A DNA stretch of 41,177 nucleotides. It comes from a virus (taxonomy: Duplodnaviria; Heunggongvirae; Uroviricota; Caudoviricetes). Shown here piece after piece: positions 2,835 to 15,311 of this stretch. The notes under the pieces were generated by a model. That model ran no database searches, was not told where the DNA came from, and saw only the letters and a list, made by a program, of their open reading frames with translations. The DNA is taken from positions 1 to 41,177 of IMG/VR virus record IMGVR_UViG_2534681997_000004. One strand, given 5' to 3'. Each line of letters starts with the position of its first letter. Position 1 is the stretch's first letter. Both the position numbers and the translations under genes were made by a program.

Positions 2835-5669
2835 TTATGCCTGAGTACGCAGCGCTTCAAGGCGGCGCAGGTCGAAGTCGTTCAGTTCGTCGGTGTAGTC
2901 AGCAGTGATTGGCGCTGGCCATTCACCTGTGTCGAATCCGGTTGCGATATTGCGCATCGCTTTGCGGTACTCGAGCATACCCAGCTCCAGTAGTTCAGCG
3001 GATGCCTCGATGATGGCGATCCAGTGGTAGTTCTCGTCTTTGTTGACGAAAATCCAGAAGAACTGATCCAGCGCTGCGGTTTCGCAGTACATAGCCGCGC
3101 TCAGGTGATAATCACGTTCAATAATTTCCCGGTGTAGCCTGGCGCGCAGGCTTTCCTGCTTAACATTCCACATGCTGATGGTTTTCAGGTCAGCACCGAT
3201 ACGCACGCCGTCTAGGTCGATCTCAAGGTCAGGGCGCACACGAACTTCCAGTCCCGTCTCCTCGTCAAAGCCAAAGTAGCTCACCTCAACGGCGCGGCTC
3301 GGGTGGGTTAGCAGCATGCCTGCGGTCGGGTGTGCCAGCAGGGCCGACTGGATGGCCTGGGCGGTCACCAGCTGCTGGCGCGTCACCAGAATCTTGTCGC
3401 CCGGATTTTCTCGCCAGGCGTCCAGCAGCTCGTCGGCGAATACGGCATCGGGTTTAACCGACTTAATCGCTTGGATCATTTCCGCTTTGCTGCCGGACAC
3501 CTTAAGCGGTGCCGGCTTCTGGGCTTCCTGCTCCACCAGGTCAGGGTTGATGATTGCCAGCTGTTCAAGCAGCGCATCGCGGCTGCCGCTGGTTTTAACC
3601 GGCGCGGGCAGGGTGGCGTTGTACTCTTTGATGCAGGCTTTCATAGCTGCTGCGGTCTGCTTCTGGTCTGGCTCGATGCGCTGGTACTCTGCCGGCAAAG
3701 CCATATAGCTCTGGGCCGTTTCCTCCAGGCTGGCGCCCAGCGGCAGCTGCGCGGGCAGGGTGGCGTTGTGCTCTTCAAGCAGCGCTTTGATATCGTCAGT
3801 GCTCAGCAGTGCCGGCAGGGTGGCGTTGTGCGAATCGATGAACTCGCGCAGGGTGGCGGTGGTAGTAAAAGCATCTTCCGGGATCTCCGGCTCCACGCTG
3901 AACTCTGCCTCAAGGTTTTCAGGCTGCAGCGCCAGGGCGTGAACCAGATTACCCATGTCCAGCACCTTGGAAGGGGCCCGCGGGATAGTTTTGGCGACGT
4001 GGCGCGCGTTGAAGTACATCAGGCTGACCCTGGCATCCTTCACCTGGGTGGAACTGATCCCGTTCGCCGCGTGATAAACGTCATTCGGCACGCCTTCATA
4101 GCGGCCCGGTTCGAAGTACGCCGGGTATTCCGGGACCGGTTGTGAAGGTTGCTCTTCCGGCGCGCTCGCTTTCTCCTCTGATGCTTCGGTGGTCAATTCC
4201 TGCGTAGTGGCGTTCGCCAGCTCCGGCGCCGCGGCGGAGAGCACCTCAGCCGGGTTCAGGGTATCTGTTTGCGGATCAGTTGCATCAGCGCTTTCGCCTG
4301 GTGGTACCGTATCAACAGTTTTGTCTTTCTCTGGCTGAGTCGCTTCCATCTGCACATCGCTGGTGGTCTCCACTACGGTTTCCGGTTTTTCTGCTTCATT
4401 TGAGGGAATATTGATGACCGGGTTAGTATTTCCACTCAACAGGCCATTGATGGAGAACATGCCACCGCCGAGGTTCGCGACCTGCGGCTGAGCTGTTGGT
4501 TCCTCAACCTCTACTTGCGTCTGAACCGCGGACGCGCGCAGGGGCATCAGTTCAGTTGCGGCGTTAAACTCAGCGGTCATGGTCTGGTTAACGAACTCCA
4601 GATGGGCCGCCGGCGTACGATGAATGTTTTCCGGTGCGATCCGTACCAGGTTGAAAATGGCCGCACGGTTTACCGACAGAACGCCAGGCTGGTTACGCAG
4701 AAGGGCGCTCCATGATTTCCAGGGCTCTTCTTTTTTCGCCACGATTTCTTTGGCGCGACGGTGAATGCTGCCCGGGATCTCAAGGTGGTTGAAATCCATC
4801 GGCAGCAGGGCACAGGCGATCTCCAGATCCAGTGTGTCCAGCGTGTGATGCGCACCTTCGCCGCGGTCGGTGACATATCCACCATCGGCATTGGTACCTG
4901 CGTCAGTGCGCTGAACACTACTGATGTGATTACCGGCAGCCCATTCACGCGCCAGGATGCCACGGTCAATGTAATCAGTCGCCGCCCACATTCTGGTGAA
5001 ACGGAGTACCAGCGCGAGTTCGTGACGCTTGTCCTGGCTGAACACTTTGCGAATGGCATCGGTGTAGCGCCACAGGTCTTTGGTGTCGTAACCCTTCACT
5101 TCCGGGCAGTTCTCAGCAGCTAACAGCAAGTTCTGGACGTAACTGTTATCAGTGTCCATCTCCAGCGCGCCGATAGCTTCGTACTCTTCGCGGGTTACGT
5201 GGTGGCGCAGTTCGTCGGCGGTGAACTGGGAAAGCAGTTGCTTACGAAACGGCATCTGCACTACCGGGTAGAGGGTTGAGTCGTCGTCGTGTTCGTCCAG
5301 CGTGATGCCAGCGGTTTCTGGCAGCGTTGACTCAGTAGTTATGTGACTATCAACGGTCTGAGCCGTTTTCTCGTCAGAGTTTTCAGCTGTGACTTTTGGC
5401 AGCCAGGTGCGGTCATCGTTCTGCAGTTCGTAGCGTTTGCACCAGGTGTAATCCACTGCGCCTTCTTCCGGCAGGTCGTCATATACCGGGAAATCGGTGC
5501 GGATTGGTTTGGCATAATCTTTACCGCGGCCAGTTTCTTCAATTCCGGCTTCTTCCAGTGCCACATCGAGTTGGAGATTGGCGCGCGCTACACTTTTCGC
5601 AGTGAACCAAATCACTGCATCTTTCTTGCCAGACTTCTGACTGGCTTTTATCAGATGGAAAAATTCCAT
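2835..5669 (-). CDS. recE: RecE-like exonuclease VIII
   Basis: Long ORF; N-terminus (MEFFHLIKASQKSGKKDAVIWF...FPVYDDLPEEGAVDYTW) resembles RecE; C-terminal nuclease-like domain; start chosen at ATG 5669 preceded by AGAGGA RBS (ORF track extends to 5774 via an alternative start). Confidence 0.65.
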   Translation of the reverse strand: MEFFHLIKASQKSGKKDAVIWFTAKSVARANLQLDVALEEAGIEETGRGKDYAKPIRTDFPVYDDLPEEGAVDYTWCKRYELQNDDRTWLPKVTAENSDEKTAQTVDSHITTESTLPETAGITLDEHDDDSTLYPVVQMPFRKQLLSQFTADELRHHVTREEYEAIGALEMDTDNSYVQNLLLAAENCPEVKGYDTKDLWRYTDAIRKVFSQDKRHELALVLRFTRMWAATDYIDRGILAREWAAGNHISSVQRTDAGTNADGGYVTDRGEGAHHTLDTLDLEIACALLPMDFNHLEIPGSIHRRAKEIVAKKEEPWKSWSALLRNQPGVLSVNRAAIFNLVRIAPENIHRTPAAHLEFVNQTMTAEFNAATELMPLRASAVQTQVEVEEPTAQPQVANLGGGMFSINGLLSGNTNPVINIPSNEAEKPETVVETTSDVQMEATQPEKDKTVDTVPPGESADATDPQTDTLNPAEVLSAAAPELANATTQELTTEASEEKASAPEEQPSQPVPEYPAYFEPGRYEGVPNDVYHAANGISSTQVKDARVSLMYFNARHVAKTIPRAPSKVLDMGNLVHALALQPENLEAEFSVEPEIPEDAFTTTATLREFIDSHNATLPALLSTDDIKALLEEHNATLPAQLPLGASLEETAQSYMALPAEYQRIEPDQKQTAAAMKACIKEYNATLPAPVKTSGSRDALLEQLAIINPDLVEQEAQKPAPLKVSGSKAEMIQAIKSVKPDAVFADELLDAWRENPGDKILVTRQQLVTAQAIQSALLAHPTAGMLLTHPSRAVEVSYFGFDEETGLEVRVRPDLEIDLDGVRIGADLKTISMWNVKQESLRARLHREIIERDYHLSAAMYCETAALDQFFWIFVNKDENYHWIAIIEASAELLELGMLEYRKAMRNIATGFDTGEWPAPITADYTDELNDFDLRRLEALRTQA

Positions 5670-7516: not shown

Positions 7517-7906
7517 TTAGGTTTGCTCACCTTGCGATCGAATCCGACCCTTCATGTACTTCTCGTACAGCTCATCTAACTCTTTCAGGCGAAGCGCAAA
7601 AATGCGGAGCATGTTCTGCTGCTCTTCTTCCGGTAACTGGCGGTAGAGCTCGAGCAAACGCTGTTCGTCCGGTTTGAGACCGTCTTTCTCCCCAACGTCT
7701 TCACCGAGTAGCCAGGCGACAGAAATACCAACAGCGTCGGCTATGGCCAGTGCCGATTTCTTACTAATCACGCCTTTTTTGAACCAGCCGTTTACGGCCT
7801 GAGGGGTGACTCCAGCTATTCTTGCCATGTCTGCTTTGGTAACGCCGCGATCAGTGATCTCAGTAAGGCGCTCCACCAGAACGAGGTTGGGTTCTTCTTT
7901 TCTCAT
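7517..7906 (-). CDS. Phage repressor, short HTH (XRE/CI-like, RacR-like) without peptidase domain
   Basis: About 129 aa from ATG 7906; HTH region ADMARIAGVTPQAVNGWFKKGVISKKSALAIADAVGISVAWLL; divergent from a Cro-like gene. Confidence 0.7.
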   Translation of the reverse strand: MRKEEPNLVLVERLTEITDRGVTKADMARIAGVTPQAVNGWFKKGVISKKSALAIADAVGISVAWLLGEDVGEKDGLKPDEQRLLELYRQLPEEEQQNMLRIFALRLKELDELYEKYMKGRIRSQGEQT

Positions 7907-8008: not shown

Positions 8009-8227
8009 ATGTCCGCACTCGATAAAGCAATTAAAGCCGCTGGCTCTGCCAGAAAGCTCAGCATCGCGCTTGGTGTGACGAGTATGTCTGTAAGTCATTG
8101 GAAGAATCGTGACCAAGGGATCGTCCCGCCAAGCTATATCTTCCCGATTTTCAAAATGACAGGCGTAACCCCCCACGAGCTGCGCCCTGATCTCTATCCA
8201 AATCCCACTGACGGATTACCAAAGTAG
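8009..8227 (+). CDS. Cro-like HTH regulator (YdaS-like)
   Basis: 72-aa ORF with AGGAGA RBS, divergent from repressor; HTH ARKLSIALGVTSMSVSHW. Confidence 0.6.
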   Translation: MSALDKAIKAAGSARKLSIALGVTSMSVSHWKNRDQGIVPPSYIFPIFKMTGVTPHELRPDLYPNPTDGLPK

Positions 8228-8238
8228 GAGCACTGACA

Positions 8239-8796
8239 ATGCAAACACTTTCTTTTCAACAGAATAACAGAGCGCCATCAGAGCACCTGAAATTCCAGTA
8301 TCAACACAGTGAGGCTGAAGGCCAGCCGGTCGATCACCGGGCTATCTGTTCTGCCGTCCGCGCCTGGGCGGCGGCAGAGGGCCGCGTGGCGGTCGCTCTG
8401 GCGATTAAAGAGGCTGCCGAACAGGCCGAGCTTGACAGCATTGACATGACCGGCAGCGCCGATGTGTGGAACGTGAAGCTGTTTCGCTGGCTGGACAACC
8501 ACGAGAAATCACCGGCCTACCGGGCGAACGTCGAGCAGCTGGCGCCGGTAATAATTTCGGTTCTGCCGCTGGCGTACCGGGATCGCGTGATTAAGCACGA
8601 CTGCTTTGCGGTTCGTGTCGCCAGGTCGGTGAAAGAAGACGCTGAGGCGATACAGGCTGTCGTCCTCAAAGCCCCCAGACACGAACGGATGAAGGAAATC
8701 AGCGAGAGCATCGTAGCCAAGCTCTACCTGGACGGACCTGATTCTGTGGCGCCCATTATGGCGATGGTTACAACGATGCTGGGTGGTGCGCTATGA
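8239..8796 (+). CDS. Putative CII-position regulator (YdaT-like)
   Basis: 185-aa ORF immediately after the cro-like gene with GGAG RBS; assignment by position and vague family resemblance. Confidence 0.4.
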   Translation: MQTLSFQQNNRAPSEHLKFQYQHSEAEGQPVDHRAICSAVRAWAAAEGRVAVALAIKEAAEQAELDSIDMTGSADVWNVKLFRWLDNHEKSPAYRANVEQLAPVIISVLPLAYRDRVIKHDCFAVRVARSVKEDAEAIQAVVLKAPRHERMKEISESIVAKLYLDGPDSVAPIMAMVTTMLGGAL

Positions 8797-9794: not shown

Positions 9795-10133
9795 ATGCCA
9801 AGACCAAATACACCAGAAGAGCAGGCGGCACTTATCCGGGTGATCATCGAAGAGGTGAAAATCCGTGGACGCTTAACCGTTAGCGAGGCATCACAGATGT
9901 TGTCGCTGCATCGTCAGACTGCTGAGAAGTATTTCCGCGTAGCAGCCGAACGCGGCGAACTCATTCGTTACGGTCGTCTAGGTTTGTTCAGGGACCCAAA
10001 GGCTGTAATTGATTTCGATCTCCAACGATTCTCATACGGTTCGAGTAAGCCTCTGATTGAGTTACCAGCAGATTTTCGGGGAAGTGCGGTTATGCGTCGG
10101 GTTATAGATATCGTGGGGAGGATGCCAGCATGA
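9795..10133 (+). CDS. Hypothetical HTH-containing protein
   Basis: 112-aa ORF with AGGGGG RBS; HTH-like LTVSEASQMLSLHRQTAEKY. Confidence 0.4.
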   Translation: MPRPNTPEEQAALIRVIIEEVKIRGRLTVSEASQMLSLHRQTAEKYFRVAAERGELIRYGRLGLFRDPKAVIDFDLQRFSYGSSKPLIELPADFRGSAVMRRVIDIVGRMPA

Positions 10134-10324
10134 CAACCGAAAAACTGGCGTTGAATTATGACCCAGCCGATCCCGACAAGATGCGATTACCGGCTGGCAT
10201 AACATGTGGTAATTGCCACCATATCCATCGTTGTAAAGCAATTTTTGGACACACGGAGTCGAACACATATTGCGATTGGTCACCGTCGCGATTTACTGCT
10301 GGCATTGGCGTGAAGGGGGATTGA
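10130..10324 (+). CDS. Hypothetical small Cys-rich protein
   Basis: 64 aa, ATGA overlap with upstream gene; CGNCHH...C...C pattern. Confidence 0.4.
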   Translation: MTTEKLALNYDPADPDKMRLPAGITCGNCHHIHRCKAIFGHTESNTYCDWSPSRFTAGIGVKGD

Positions 10325-10325
10325 G

Positions 10326-10532
10326 ATGATTGCTGCAAACTACATAGTCAATCTCTACTGCGACTGCGATGAGTGCACCGGTAAGCAATGGGGAAGCCCA
10401 GATTTTGCCGAGTACATTGGAAATTCATGGTCTGGCTGCGCTAAAGAGGCGCGGCCACATGGCTGGCGTATCAGCAAGGATAGAACGCGAGCGTTCGCGC
10501 CAGGTCACAAGATTTCGAGGACTAACCCATGA
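10326..10532 (+). CDS. Hypothetical small Cys-rich protein
   Basis: 68 aa starting 2 nt after the upstream stop; YCDCDEC motif. Confidence 0.35.
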   Translation: MIAANYIVNLYCDCDECTGKQWGSPDFAEYIGNSWSGCAKEARPHGWRISKDRTRAFAPGHKISRTNP

Positions 10533-10900
10533 CAACTATTACCAAAAAGCAACGCGCAGAGCTACGCATGAAGTTTGGCGGTCGCTGTGCTTATTGTGGA
10601 TGCGAACTACCAGAGAAAGGCTGGCATGCTGACCATGTAAAACCGGTCATTCGTTTTGATGGAAATATGCTTCACCAGGAACGTGACGATATATCAAACA
10701 TGGTTCCAGCATGCCACCCATGCAATCTGCACAAGCATTGCAGTAGCCTGGAAGATTACCGGCGAATTATCGGTGATGGTCGTCGTGAATTCCTTGTGTC
10801 CGGGAAAGGCAAAGCGCTGGTTCGTATGGGATTGGTTGAAATGAAATCTGACCCAGTGGTGTTCTGGTTCGAAAAATATCAAGAAGGAGCGTCAGCATGA
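10529..10900 (+). CDS. HNH endonuclease
   Basis: CAYCG...HADHVKP...N...PACHPCNLHK matches the HNH Cys/His/Asn signature; overlapping start/stop with neighbours. Confidence 0.7.
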   Translation: MTTITKKQRAELRMKFGGRCAYCGCELPEKGWHADHVKPVIRFDGNMLHQERDDISNMVPACHPCNLHKHCSSLEDYRRIIGDGRREFLVSGKGKALVRMGLVEMKSDPVVFWFEKYQEGASA

Positions 10901-11376
10901 CAACTAACAACCACCCGGCGCACGGTCCTGTATCACTCGATCGCCTGCACCAGATACGTGAAATACTCAGCAAAGCAGCAGCACAAAGCGACGGCGGTAA
11001 TGTCGGCTATGCGATGGCTGATGCTGTGAAGGTGATCAATGGAGTTCTGGAGTCGATGGCCCGTGAGCAAGTACGCCGTGAGCATGCTACATGGTCACAG
11101 GCTACTTTCGGCGATGTCGGTCCAGTTGGTCCTCTGAAGCACCTTTCTAAAGAAGCGCTCGAGGCTGCTGCTGAACCTGGCGACCTTAGCGAATGGGCTG
11201 ACATGCAATTCCTGTTATGGGATACGCAGCGTCGTGCCGGTATCAGTGATGAACAGATTACCCAAGCGATGGTAGAGAAGTTGGCGATTAACAAACAGCG
11301 CAAATGGCCTGAGCCGAAAGACGGTGAGCCATGTGTACATGACAGAATGAATCATGAGCGTATTGATTTTAGCTGA
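10897..11376 (+). CDS. Hypothetical protein, possibly nucleotide pyrophosphohydrolase-like (MazG/DUF550-like)
   Basis: 159 aa, translationally coupled to the HNH gene; family assignment from memory only. Confidence 0.35.
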   Translation: MTTNNHPAHGPVSLDRLHQIREILSKAAAQSDGGNVGYAMADAVKVINGVLESMAREQVRREHATWSQATFGDVGPVGPLKHLSKEALEAAAEPGDLSEWADMQFLLWDTQRRAGISDEQITQAMVEKLAINKQRKWPEPKDGEPCVHDRMNHERIDFS

Positions 11377-11504: not shown

Positions 11505-11972
11505 ATGGATACTAAGAATGAAGTTGTGCAACATTCATCACCCCAGCAGGCAGTGAGAGTATTTGCCGAGGCCCTTGAACAAGCCGTTAGGGAGAACACT
11601 ATAGAAGATTCGAACTCTCGGTCGCCTGGAAAAACTGTGCTTGATTCAAATTCAGAAATAAAATCTTCAACAATTGTCGGTGCTGGTGGATTGATCGGAA
11701 CTGCTGGCGTTGCAGCCACTACAGCTTCGGCCGTTACTGGTGGGTCAGCTGCTACTATAATGTCTGCAACAGCTGGAACAGTTGGAGCCAGTGTTGCATC
11801 TTTAGCAGGCGCAGCAGGAACGGCAGGGGCTGCGTCGATCTCATCCGGAATGGCAGCCGTTGGTTCGGTTGTTGGAGGAGGAATGGCCGCCGGGGCAATA
11901 ATCACAGCGGTGGCACCTGTCGCAGCAGTCGCAAGTGTTGCTTACTTGGCTTTTAAGCTTTTTGAAGATTAA
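11505..11972 (+). CDS. Gly/Ala-rich hydrophobic (glycine-zipper-like) membrane protein
   Basis: GGAGAG RBS 6 nt before ATG; C-terminal about 100 aa is almost entirely G/A/S/T/V with GxxxG/AxxxA spacing. Confidence 0.55.
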   Translation: MDTKNEVVQHSSPQQAVRVFAEALEQAVRENTIEDSNSRSPGKTVLDSNSEIKSSTIVGAGGLIGTAGVAATTASAVTGGSAATIMSATAGTVGASVASLAGAAGTAGAASISSGMAAVGSVVGGGMAAGAIITAVAPVAAVASVAYLAFKLFED

Positions 11973-12175: not shown

Positions 12176-12203
12176 AACCCGCTACGGCGGGTTTTCTTTT
12201 TTT
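12176..12203 (+). terminator. Intrinsic terminator
   Basis: CCCGC-tacg-GCGGG stem-loop followed by TTTTCTTTTTTT. Confidence 0.6.
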
Positions 12204-12265
12204 ACTACTGACAGAAAATTAACAATTTGTGCTCTTAAAACGTTGATCATTTCCGTGCATAGGTA

Positions 12266-12285
12266 TACTGTATAAAAACACAGTA
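12266..12285 (+). promoter_or_regulatory. LexA (SOS) box
   Basis: TACTGTATAAAAACACAGTA = CTGT-N8-ACAG palindrome, 18 nt upstream of the dinI-like start. Confidence 0.7.
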
Positions 12286-12303
12286 CATGCAATGGAGGCC
12301 ATT

Positions 12304-12537
12304 ATGAAAGTTGAATTAACCATTGATCGCATGAAAGAACTTCCTAAAGGCGCGGTACCAGCACTGGAGAAAGAATTGCTTAAGTGCCTGAATGATCACT
12401 ATGACAATTGCAGGCTCACAATCCGCCGTGCCGGGTCCGATGGGTTAAGTGTTTTCGGTGGAGACAAGGACGATAAAAAGAAAATCGAATCCATCCTCCA
12501 GGAAACCTGGGAAAGCGCTGACGACTGGTTTTATTAG
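12304..12537 (+). CDS. dinI: DinI-family DNA-damage-inducible protein
   Basis: GGAGG RBS; C-terminus ...KKKIESILQETWESADDWFY matches the DinI signature. Confidence 0.8.
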   Translation: MKVELTIDRMKELPKGAVPALEKELLKCLNDHYDNCRLTIRRAGSDGLSVFGGDKDDKKKIESILQETWESADDWFY

Positions 12538-12654
12538 AATTGCGCTTAAGGCTGGCGCGCATTTATCAGAATACCGCAATTTGCGTAACCCTCTGATGCT
12601 GCTGCCGACAATCTTTAATCGCGTCTGTTAGTCGCTCGAAGGGAGAACATAAAT

Positions 12655-12903
12655 GTGAGTGATTCAGCTTTGCAAACGTCAGATGACAACTGGTATGACA
12701 TTGTAAGAAGGTCTGACGGCTGCGTGGTGTTTAGCTTTCCTTCATCGGGCAGGCATCTAATTTATCGCGTCAATGGCATGGTTTCTATGCGGCCTTTGCT
12801 GGATGATGAAGAGGTCTTTACTCCTAATGGTTTTATGCAGTTTATTCACCGTCTCGGCTACCGGGTAACCCCACCTTCTGATAATATGAAATCAACGGTC
12901 TGA
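12655..12903 (+). CDS. Hypothetical protein
   Basis: 82 aa, GTG start with AAGGGAG RBS. Confidence 0.4.
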   Translation: MSDSALQTSDDNWYDIVRRSDGCVVFSFPSSGRHLIYRVNGMVSMRPLLDDEEVFTPNGFMQFIHRLGYRVTPPSDNMKSTV

Positions 12904-12937: not shown

Positions 12938-13537
12938 ATGGCGCACGAACTACAACTCATCAAGCAGTCATCAGGAATCCTGATCCCCGCGACGCCGGAG
13001 ACCAGCGATATTCTGCAATCAAAAATCAAACTCGGCGCCGTGCTGGTAGCCGAATTTCGCCAGGTGAGGAATCCCGCATTCCATCGCCGTTTTTTTGCGC
13101 TCCTGAATCTCGGGTTTGAATACTGGGAACCTACTGGAGGGGCGATATCCAGCAATGAGCGTAAGCTCGTAAATGGTTATGCTAAATTCCTCGCGGCATT
13201 TGGTGGAAACGAAGGCGCACTGCTGGATGCTGCCGAGCAATATCTGGACCGCATCGCCGATAAGCGCGCCGGTAGCATCAGCATCTGCAAATCCTATGAT
13301 GCTTATCGCGCCTGGGTGATCGTCGAGTCTGGTCACTATGACGCTATTCAGCTTCCTGACGGAACACTTCGCAAACATCCCCGCAGTATTGCCTTCGCTA
13401 ACATGGACGAAACCGAGTTCCAGCAGCTGTACAAAGCCGCGCTCGATGTTCTGTGGCGATGGATACTCTCCCGATCATTTCGCAGTTGTGAAGAGGCAGA
13501 AAACGCCGCCGCCCAGCTGATGAGCTTTGCGGGGTGA
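12938..13537 (+). CDS. Nin-region protein, YbcN-like (DUF1367-like)
   Basis: 199 aa with GGAGAG RBS; position upstream of ybcO-like and rusA as in DLP12-type nin regions. Confidence 0.4.
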   Translation: MAHELQLIKQSSGILIPATPETSDILQSKIKLGAVLVAEFRQVRNPAFHRRFFALLNLGFEYWEPTGGAISSNERKLVNGYAKFLAAFGGNEGALLDAAEQYLDRIADKRAGSISICKSYDAYRAWVIVESGHYDAIQLPDGTLRKHPRSIAFANMDETEFQQLYKAALDVLWRWILSRSFRSCEEAENAAAQLMSFAG

Positions 13538-14395: not shown

Positions 14396-14529
14396 CATTT
14401 GAATCCTGTTTTTCCGATCACCTCCGCGTTCGCTGGCAGCGGCTTCGCTTATACCACTTTCCCGGCTCTGTGCTAACGGATTACCGAATACTGAAGAACT
14501 ACATCAAAACCATAGGCGGTGCAGTATGA
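14392..14529 (+). CDS. Small ORF (45 aa) coupled between rusA and the Q-like gene (YlcG-position)
   Basis: ATG overlaps the rusA stop (ATGA) and its stop overlaps the Q-like start (ATGA); not in ORF track because under 60 aa. Confidence 0.4.
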
Positions 14530-15215
14530 ATACTCAATTTCTCGAATACGTGCGCCAGCAGTTGATGGTGGCGACCGCAGACCTCAGCGGGGCGACGAAA
14601 GGGCAGCTGGTAGCTTTCGCCGAGAACGCGCAATTCACCGCGACGGCGCGGAGTCGGGGCCGGAAAAAGGTATTCGACAAGGATAAGCAGCGCATGGTCA
14701 ATCCTGACGGCCAGCCGATGAGCGGCAACCAGTCCCGCGCTAAGGGCTCGTCTATCGCGCTGGTGGGCCCGGTAGAGTACGGGACCGCATCGTGGCGCCG
14801 CGCTGTTCTGTCGCTTGAAGACCATCAGAAAGCGTGGCTGCTATGGAACTATAGCGAGAACGTGCGCTGGTGCTATCAGGTGGAAATCACTCAATGGGCG
14901 TGGGCAGAGTTCCGGGAGCAGCTCGGCGCGAAGAAGGTGGCCGGCAAAACGATGGAGCGCCTGAAGAAGCTTGTCTGGCTCGCGGCTCAGGACGTGAAAG
15001 CAGAGCTGGCAGGGCGTGAGACGTACGAATATCAGGCGCTGGCGTCGCTGGTTGGCGTAACGCCAAAAAACTGGTCAGAGACCTTTACTGACCGCTGGGT
15101 TGAGATGCGCAGCATCTTCCTGCGACTGGATAGCGGGGCTTTATTGCAGGTTACGCGATCACGTTCACAACAAAAGGCGACAAATTTAGACTCAAGTCTT
15201 GCAAAACTGGATTGA
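14526..15215 (+). CDS. Putative late-gene antiterminator (Q-like)
   Basis: 229-aa ORF between rusA and the lysis cassette, followed by a promoter-like element and intrinsic terminators; assignment mainly positional. Confidence 0.5.
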   Translation: MNTQFLEYVRQQLMVATADLSGATKGQLVAFAENAQFTATARSRGRKKVFDKDKQRMVNPDGQPMSGNQSRAKGSSIALVGPVEYGTASWRRAVLSLEDHQKAWLLWNYSENVRWCYQVEITQWAWAEFREQLGAKKVAGKTMERLKKLVWLAAQDVKAELAGRETYEYQALASLVGVTPKNWSETFTDRWVEMRSIFLRLDSGALLQVTRSRSQQKATNLDSSLAKLD

Positions 15216-15235
15216 AACGCATATATTTCATGTAA
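15207..15235 (+). promoter_or_regulatory. Putative late promoter (PR'-like)
   Basis: TTGCAA-17 nt-TATATT at the 3' end of the Q-like gene, upstream of tandem terminators and the holin gene. Confidence 0.35.
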
Positions 15236-15281
15236 ATCTGATATCGTCGCCATAGCTTCGTAGGTCGACAAAGAATTAAGA

Positions 15282-15311
15282 GCCTCGCCATCGTGCGGGG
15301 CTTTTTTATTT
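15282..15311 (+). terminator. Intrinsic terminator (tR'-like, first of tandem pair)
   Basis: 7-bp stem GCCTCGC/GCGGGGC with 6-nt loop followed by TTTTTTATTT. Confidence 0.55.

Follow-up and report, generated by a model that had tools for sequence, protein, structure and literature searches.

In this study, the window, by which we mean the whole stretch of 41,177 nt that was analysed, was found to carry a module of an already known kind, the Gifsy-type induction module. The LexA box in this module probably gates a GfoA-type antirepressor, whose predicted target is a non-cleavable repressor of the GfoR type; DinI would be an accessory that is expressed alongside. By analogy with the Gifsy prophages, it is most likely the 82-aa antirepressor, not DinI, that switches the prophage on after DNA damage.

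The Gifsy induction module was described by Lemire, Figueroa-Bossi and Bossi (PLoS Genet 2011; PMC3121763). It consists of a terminator-like palindrome and a LexA box, a dinI homologue, an antirepressor gene with a non-canonical start codon and an irsA homologue. They reported that LexA cleavage releases the antirepressor, which sequesters a repressor that RecA cannot cleave, and the conservation of the module in Escherichia prophages was already noted in 2011 (PMC3121763). The unit in the window has the order terminator, LexA-overlapped promoter, dinI, an 82-aa ORF with a GTG start, and a DUF1367/irsA homologue.

Genomic context of the module

The window is a lambdoid prophage-like element with integrase, RecE/RecT, repressor/cro, O, RusA and Q genes. 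The integrase gene (1-1194) is followed by RecE/RecT-type genes on the minus strand. A gene for an HTH repressor lies divergent from a Cro-like YdaS gene, after which come a YdaT-family gene and an O-type replication gene. The dinI region is followed by YbcO, RusA, Q and then the late genes, and the dinI unit is located in a nin-like region upstream of Q. The left arm, including the repressor gene, shows 99.9% DNA identity to a prophage of E. coli AR_0119, and the dinI-antirepressor module shows 99.2% identity to it, while the intervening module differs. Because the left arm and the dinI region are near-identical to AR_0119, the host is taken to be E. coli or a close relative. Among isolated phages, mEp237 comes closest in the dinI region (94%), and DNA-level matches to this region were also obtained with the dinI regions of Gifsy-1 and Gifsy-2.

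The positions of Cro and cII are held by YdaS (8009-8227) and YdaT (8239-8796) genes on the plus strand, which Pfam labels as 'toxins'. A dATP/dGTP pyrophosphohydrolase-like gene (10897-11376, plus strand) was found downstream of the replication genes. The segment 11400-12090 is a cargo slot, not common to the E. coli or mEp237 relatives, and it holds an ORF of 155 aa (11505-11972, plus strand) whose product is hydrophobic and rich in Gly/Ala in its C-terminal half and gave no match in Pfam. The sequence shared with these relatives restarts at about 12092, where a DNA cytosine methyltransferase gene has left its 3' remnant. Directly 3' of Q (14526-15215), positions 15231-15304 on the plus strand match the Rfam family isrJ, an Hfq-binding sRNA, with 68.7 bits; this isrJ-like match probably forms the leader of the late transcript that depends on Q. 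The late/structural region (15000-39900) has a nucleotide coverage of only about 4% in the isolated-phage collection, which means that the virion module is poorly covered by cultured phages. The best structural match was the capsid gene of a Serratia myovirus (79%).

The LexA box and the promoter region

The control region contains the following features.

12176-12203, plus strand: intrinsic terminator, AACCCGCTACGGCGGGTT followed by a T-run (terminator scan; hairpin kept in relatives)
12243-12248, plus strand: putative -35 element TTGATC (conserved GTTGA block in an alignment of 21 upstream regions)
12264-12271, plus strand: putative -10 region (alignment and phage 186 p95 precedent)
12266-12285, plus strand: LexA (SOS) box TACTGTATAAAAACACAGTA (window scan, shuffles and the loci of relatives)

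The LexA-like 20-mer TACTGTATAAAAACACAGTA is the single occurrence of CTGT-N8-ACAG across the window. The earlier note had placed such a site 18 nt upstream of an ORF, and this was confirmed, as the gap between the box and the ATG at 12304 is exactly 18 nt (12286-12303). The box differs from the LexA consensus TACTGTATATATATACAGTA at three positions, all in the central AT-rich part, and the second-best LexA-like site in the window has seven mismatches. The loose CTGT-N8-ACAG pattern is expected by chance about 0.5 times per window and was matched at least once in 38 of 100 shuffles, but none of 100 dinucleotide-preserving shuffles gave a site with three or fewer mismatches to the 20-mer consensus. 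The same 20-mer is present in mEp237 and in the Citrobacter youngae and C. pasteurii loci.

There are two candidates for the -10 element, TATACT at 12264-12269 with a 15-nt spacer and TACTGT at 12266-12271 with a 17-nt spacer, and the putative -10 overlaps the left arm of the LexA box. A consensus promoter scan flagged no sigma-70 promoter in the window, because only 8 of 12 consensus positions match here. The assignment of the -35 and -10 elements is a weak one, which we infer from conservation and from the precedent of the 186 p95 promoter. In the Enterobacter relatives, TTGCAA-N17-TATAAA adjoins the box in place of the arrangement with the GTTGA block. The terminator hairpin is conserved in mEp237, Gifsy-1, Gifsy-2 and the Citrobacter loci, and the terminator at 12176-12203 would insulate the SOS unit from upstream early transcription. 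Both the consensus-like LexA box at the promoter and the terminator-like palindrome upstream of it align with those of Gifsy-1 and Gifsy-2.

The genes of the SOS unit

Downstream of the box, the unit is composed as follows.

12304-12537, plus strand: dinI homologue, 77 aa, leader gene (Pfam DinI, PDB 1GHH)
12538-12654, plus strand: dinI-antirepressor spacer, 117 nt (no terminator; folding at the level of shuffled sequence)
12655-12903, plus strand: GfoA-type antirepressor gene, 82 aa, GTG start (91% identity to GfoA)
12938-13537, plus strand: irsA homologue, third gene (Pfam DUF1367, E=3e-92)

The first gene has the Shine-Dalgarno sequence GGAGG at 12294-12298. Its product ends in ESILQETWESADDWFY and matched Pfam DinI (PF06183) with E=7e-25 (87.6 bits against a cut-off of 24.2), which bears out the statement of the earlier note that the C-terminus carries the DinI signature. 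The match to E. coli DinI (PDB 1GHH) is full-length (E=1e-16, residues 1-76), and in this alignment the acidic C-terminal helix ILQETWESADDWF is kept. The protein is 66% identical to DinI of Gifsy-2 and 32% identical to the C-terminal half of Tum of phage 186 (E=8e-14). It scored 88 bits with NCBIfam NF007893, the equivalog model of chromosomal DinI, which is under the cut-off of 111, and it is therefore regarded as a phage paralogue and not the host orthologue. The phage protein probably binds RecA filaments as the host DinI does, judging from the homology. The ORF lister had placed the start of dinI at 12292; this start is unlikely to be in use, because the starts of E. coli DinI, of DinI in Gifsy and of the gene called by RefSeq in AR_0119 all correspond to 12304.

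The second gene is preceded by the Shine-Dalgarno sequence AGGGAG at 12640-12645 and has a non-canonical start codon, as in Gifsy. Its product is labelled merely 'hypothetical protein' in RefSeq and in mEp237, and family and structure searches gave no Pfam or NCBIfam family and no PDB relative. The PDB matches to RsgA were short-stretch artefacts or noise. BLASTP of the 82-aa ORF against GftA of Gifsy-2 showed no similarity, but the view that the ORF is unrelated to the Gifsy antirepressors was ruled out by the gfoA primers. The published 5' primers of gfoA encode MSNSALQK and the tagging primer encodes ...RRLGYRVTPPSDI (primer tables of PMC3121763), and the ORF in the window reads (M)SDSALQT...HRLGYRVTPPSDNMKSTV, so that both termini match. 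A weak profile similarity between GftA and the antirepressor family of the window was detected with hhalign (E=1.4e-4), which agrees with the Gifsy paper, where GftA is called 'more distantly related' (PMC3121763).

An exact search of IMG/VR with the gfoA 5' primer sequence retrieved 37 viral contigs; the same search with the gfoA 3' tagging primer (32-mer) gave no match. One of these loci, L010, also encodes a repressor with the termini MKEKTHQIN... and ...EKYMKGRIRTRED, which match the gfoR primers. The GfoA/GfoR pair of L010 is considered authentic because its ends match the published primers, and the ORF in the window is 91% identical to this GfoA. When the published primers le163 and pp867 were compared with the 37 IMG/VR gfoA loci (L005-L041), the gfoA 3' tagging primer implied the C-terminus ...PPSDI, and all 37 loci encode ...PPSDNMKSTA. 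This discrepancy suggests that the alleles differ or that the tag site is internal. Several Salmonella GfoA variants (P0027, P0028, P0033 and P0035) are frameshifted or fused, and in some lineages the antirepressor may therefore have been inactivated repeatedly.

The third gene belongs to the DUF1367 family and is named NinB/Orf-like in some phage records. Its product is 88% identical to STM1020 of Gifsy-2 and begins with MAHELQLIKQS, the same 11 residues that are encoded by primer pp644, which served to delete irsA in Gifsy-1. A dinI homologue is thus the first gene and an irsA homologue the third, as in the Gifsy modules. No terminator-like site was found on the plus strand between 12204 and 14600, and folding of the spacer 12538-12654 revealed no attenuator (z=+0.5 against shuffled sequence). 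We infer that dinI, the antirepressor gene and the irsA homologue are co-transcribed from the LexA-controlled promoter. The median pairwise dN/dS was 0.14 for dinI, 0.19 for the antirepressor gene and 0.07 for the DUF1367 gene, and all three genes are therefore maintained by selection.

The repressor and the cro-like gene

The immunity region contains two divergent genes.

7517-7906, minus strand: GfoR-type immunity repressor, 129 aa (HTH N-terminal domain and conserved C-terminal domain)
8009-8227, plus strand: Cro-like gene of the YdaS family, divergent from the repressor gene (Pfam YdaS_toxin, E=1e-13; weak P22_Cro)

The start codon of the repressor gene was placed by analogy with the experimentally used start of gfoR. 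Pfam detected only HTH domains in the repressor and no S24/LexA-like peptidase domain, and the nearest NCBIfam model is DicA. The protein is therefore, as in Gifsy, an HTH repressor of about 130 aa of the GfoR/GtgR/DicA type that has no self-cleavage domain; both the Gifsy paper and the later study of Qin count DicA among the short non-cleavable repressors (PMC3121763; bioRxiv 10.1101/2023.04.14.536235). PDB matches of the repressor to polyubiquitin were short-stretch artefacts or noise. Since the repressor is devoid of an S24 domain and the window holds no other LexA site, no route by RecA cleavage and no second LexA-controlled route is apparent. The early lytic promoter at the Cro-like gene is expected to be the one that is de-repressed on induction, a role assigned from its position.

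The repressor is 62% identical to authentic GfoR (HTH half 52%, C-terminal half 75%) and 26% identical to GtgR of Gifsy-2. The GfoR-type family contains two HTH types. In contrast, the C-terminal half (DGLKpDEqRLLELYrQLP...LRLKELDelYeKYM) has a mean pairwise identity of about 80% among the window, L010 and L042-L060. The repressor of the window is the presumed target of the 82-aa antirepressor. The antirepressor and repressor alleles showed no co-variation, with Mantel r of -0.10 and 0.02 when the HTH and C-terminal halves were taken separately. Because the HTH half is only 52% identical to that of GfoR and the alleles do not co-vary, cognate recognition is a prediction from family membership.

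Distribution of the module in related loci

When species-representative genomes were searched with an antirepressor-family profile, 21 loci were obtained, which came from Citrobacter, Enterobacter, Raoultella, Leclercia, Atlantibacter, Siccibacter and other genera. A LexA box was found 5' of the antirepressor homologue in 20 of the 21, and a DUF1367 gene followed the antirepressor gene in 19. The dinI gene was located between the box and the antirepressor gene in 17 loci and was absent from four. In three loci without dinI (L057, L058 and L062), the box lies directly 5' of the antirepressor gene at about 175 nt. As the box is present in 20 of the 21 loci, yet dinI is absent from four, the antirepressor appears as the constant partner of the box and dinI as an optional leader.

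The sole clean example of a module without dinI is L058 (Leclercia), in which the repressor, box, antirepressor and DUF1367 genes are all intact. L062 (Leclercia) was rejected as a witness for frameshifts in the antirepressor and DUF1367 genes, and L057 (Silvania) for the loss of its repressor. The decayed module in L062 occupies the region 9810-10850. L057 carries an orphan antirepressor gene that keeps the box and the DUF1367 gene, and RecT abuts cro in this locus (3400-4700, 9829-10883).

A GfoR-family repressor gene was found within 10 kb upstream in 13 of the 21 loci and was not seen there in the other eight, and the pairing of the antirepressor with this repressor is therefore not universal. 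In these eight loci, tblastn with approximate DicA and lambda CI queries gave no match to an alternative repressor, a negative result to which no weight is given. All of the Salmonella gfoA loci with retained upstream sequence (36 of 36) have the LexA box. In the phage collection, a repressor homologue was also present in 13 of the 15 records with an antirepressor homologue, against a chance expectation of about 0.01 records, although these records are not mutually independent. Repressors 96-98% identical to that of the window occur together with antirepressors of only 53% identity. The module region was matched in 113 of 5,426 complete E. coli genomes.

Discussion

The following course of events is proposed. 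In the lysogen, host LexA bound at 12266-12285, overlapping the -10 region, would silence the unit, and the upstream terminator would shield it from read-through. After DNA damage, active RecA would lead to the self-cleavage of LexA, and the operon would be transcribed. The 82-aa antirepressor would then bind the short non-cleavable GfoR-type repressor and remove it from its operators, and the early promoters would be de-repressed, leading to phage induction. DinI would be co-expressed as the leader, as an accessory and not as the trigger. Recognition of the window repressor by the window antirepressor is likewise a prediction from the two protein families.

The experiments on the Salmonella relatives agree with this proposal. 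GfoA is the experimentally proven LexA-controlled antirepressor of Gifsy-1 (PMC3121763), and a gfoA::mCherry reporter was induced by ciprofloxacin (PMC12626290). Lemire et al. reported that the lexA3 allele blocks Gifsy induction and that induction became arabinose-dependent when the box was swapped for PBAD. GftA or GfoA alone induces, and the antirepressor is necessary and sufficient in the Gifsy prophages. They also observed stable repressor-antirepressor complexes, GfoA/GfoR and GftA/GtgR, with no cleavage of the repressor (PMC3121763).

The earlier note had read this region as a phage RecA modulator under host SOS control that could tune induction or host mutagenesis. The SOS control of the phage DinI is upheld, as the box is strong and the orthologous Gifsy dinI promoters, with a single box 19 bp from the ATG, were induced 23-, 14- and 4.6-fold by nalidixic acid (PMC8072944). 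The note ended at the dinI stop codon and missed the antirepressor and irsA/DUF1367 genes, which are likely transcribed from the same promoter. Its suggested consequence, that DinI is the functional payload and tunes prophage induction or host SOS mutagenesis by modulating RecA, is unlikely. It is favoured by an intact DinI that keeps its C-terminal ILQETWESADDWF helix under purifying selection, and the record of phage 186 annotates truncated DinI-like Tum products as modulators of SOS induction. However, neither the level nor the rate of induction was significantly altered when dinI was removed from Gifsy-1 and Gifsy-3 by non-polar deletion (PMC3121763), and dinI is missing from related modules, of which L058 is complete. 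Since the antirepressor suffices, the Gifsy dinI deletions are neutral and dinI can be absent, tuning through RecA is at best accessory. On the other hand, a DinI-like module accompanies LexA-controlled antirepressors of unrelated families, fused to the antirepressor part in 186 Tum and as a separate leader here. This association, together with the purifying selection, argues for some accessory role of DinI.

One such role can be suggested, as a speculative idea that has a real but small chance of being correct: the phage DinI may be a built-in feedback element of a reversible antirepressor switch. If so, the action of DinI on RecA filaments would set the duration of LexA cleavage, and with it the damage threshold or the commitment time for induction. 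This effect would escape notice at the saturating mitomycin C doses used so far. It would explain why the DinI-like module is found with unrelated antirepressors and has a dN/dS of 0.14, yet can be lost.

It might also be supposed that the module is a relic, in which the antirepressor has been mismatched to the repressor by mosaic exchange and the element is either not self-inducible or serves other prophages only. The missing co-variation of the alleles, the occurrence of near-identical repressors with divergent antirepressors and the orphan or frameshifted copies (L057, L062 and the Salmonella variants) would fit this, and trans-acting cross-talk is documented for Gifsy and Fels-1 (PMC3121763). 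We nevertheless judge it improbable, for the antirepressor and the repressor are both intact and under purifying selection, the family shows about 80% conservation in the C-terminal domain of the repressor, and the same antirepressor-repressor pair recurs in E. coli AR_0119. Lemire et al. reported that GfoA inactivates two different repressors, GfoR and GfhR (PMC3121763), which suggests broad recognition.

A common docking surface for GfoA-type antirepressors could be provided by the C-terminal domain that is conserved in the repressor family. Such a surface would fit the action of GfoA on both GfoR and GfhR and would explain the cross-induction of heteroimmune prophages; in that case, the antirepressor of the window could induce heteroimmune prophages in the same cell.

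Less probable still is the notion that the terminator, promoter and dinI form a 'moron' that benefits the host with extra DinI during the SOS response and is unconnected to induction, the small ORF being served by early or antiterminated transcription. A classic moron is laid out in just this way, with a promoter of its own and a terminator ahead of it, and the unit is situated in the nin-like region upstream of Q. Against this, no terminator follows dinI, the relatives that are free of dinI have the box directly before the antirepressor gene, and replacement of the box abolishes induction in Gifsy (PMC3121763). That the LexA-like palindrome is a chance match with no function has a negligible probability and is effectively refuted already: the loose pattern is indeed expected about every second window, but the full consensus was not approached in the shuffles, the position of the box is kept in 20 species loci and 36 Salmonella loci, and the orthologous sites are LexA-dependent by experiment.

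With the antirepressor as the probable switch, an annotation should be corrected, as the 'hypothetical protein' of 82 aa is likely the trigger of induction, and a pipeline that sees only a 'DinI family protein' overlooks the induction switch. The element falls into the class of prophages that are induced via LexA and an antirepressor and not by cleavage of the repressor. This mechanism is reversible in principle and permits cross-talk between co-resident prophages.

Comparison with known systems

The Rem/DicA pair of the E. coli Qin cryptic prophage also has a short DicA-type repressor without a cleavage site and a small antirepressor that counters DicA, and Rem was found via GfoA homology searches. 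Rem is a distant relative of GfoA, and neither a LexA box nor a dinI leader has been reported with it (bioRxiv 10.1101/2023.04.14.536235). The chromosomal DinI of E. coli (1GHH) shares full-length homology and the acidic C-terminal helix with the phage protein, and both genes are LexA-regulated, that of the window as predicted from its sequence. The chromosomal gene is a stand-alone SOS gene, whereas the phage gene is the leader of an induction operon.

In coliphage 186, the geometry matches that of the window: the LexA box of p95-tum overlaps the -10 element, which is annotated as the first 6 nt of the box, and 18 nt including TGGAGG precede the tum start. There, too, a DinI-like module and an antirepressor are expressed together, and the latter inactivates a repressor that is not cleavable. 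The two parts are fused in one polypeptide in Tum and stand in the opposite order, the antirepressor half of Tum is unrelated to the GfoA family (hhalign probability 0.3%), and the phage is P2-like and not lambdoid.

Gifsy-2, with dinI-gftA-irsA and GtgR/GftR, has the same architecture and promoter region as the window, together with similar DinI (66%) and irsA (88%) products. It differs in having another antirepressor allele, GftA, and a repressor that is only 26% identical. Gifsy-1 of ATCC14028, with dinI-gfoA-irsA and GfoR, has the same order of parts as the window. The LexA box lies about 18-19 nt from the dinI ATG, and the identities are 91% for the antirepressor, which has 82 aa and a non-ATG start in both, and 62% for the short HTH repressor. 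The differences are the host (Salmonella in place of an E. coli-like host), the start codon of the antirepressor gene (TTG in place of GTG) and the central bases of the LexA box. As the identity in the HTH half of the repressor reaches only 52%, the element in the window is probably heteroimmune.
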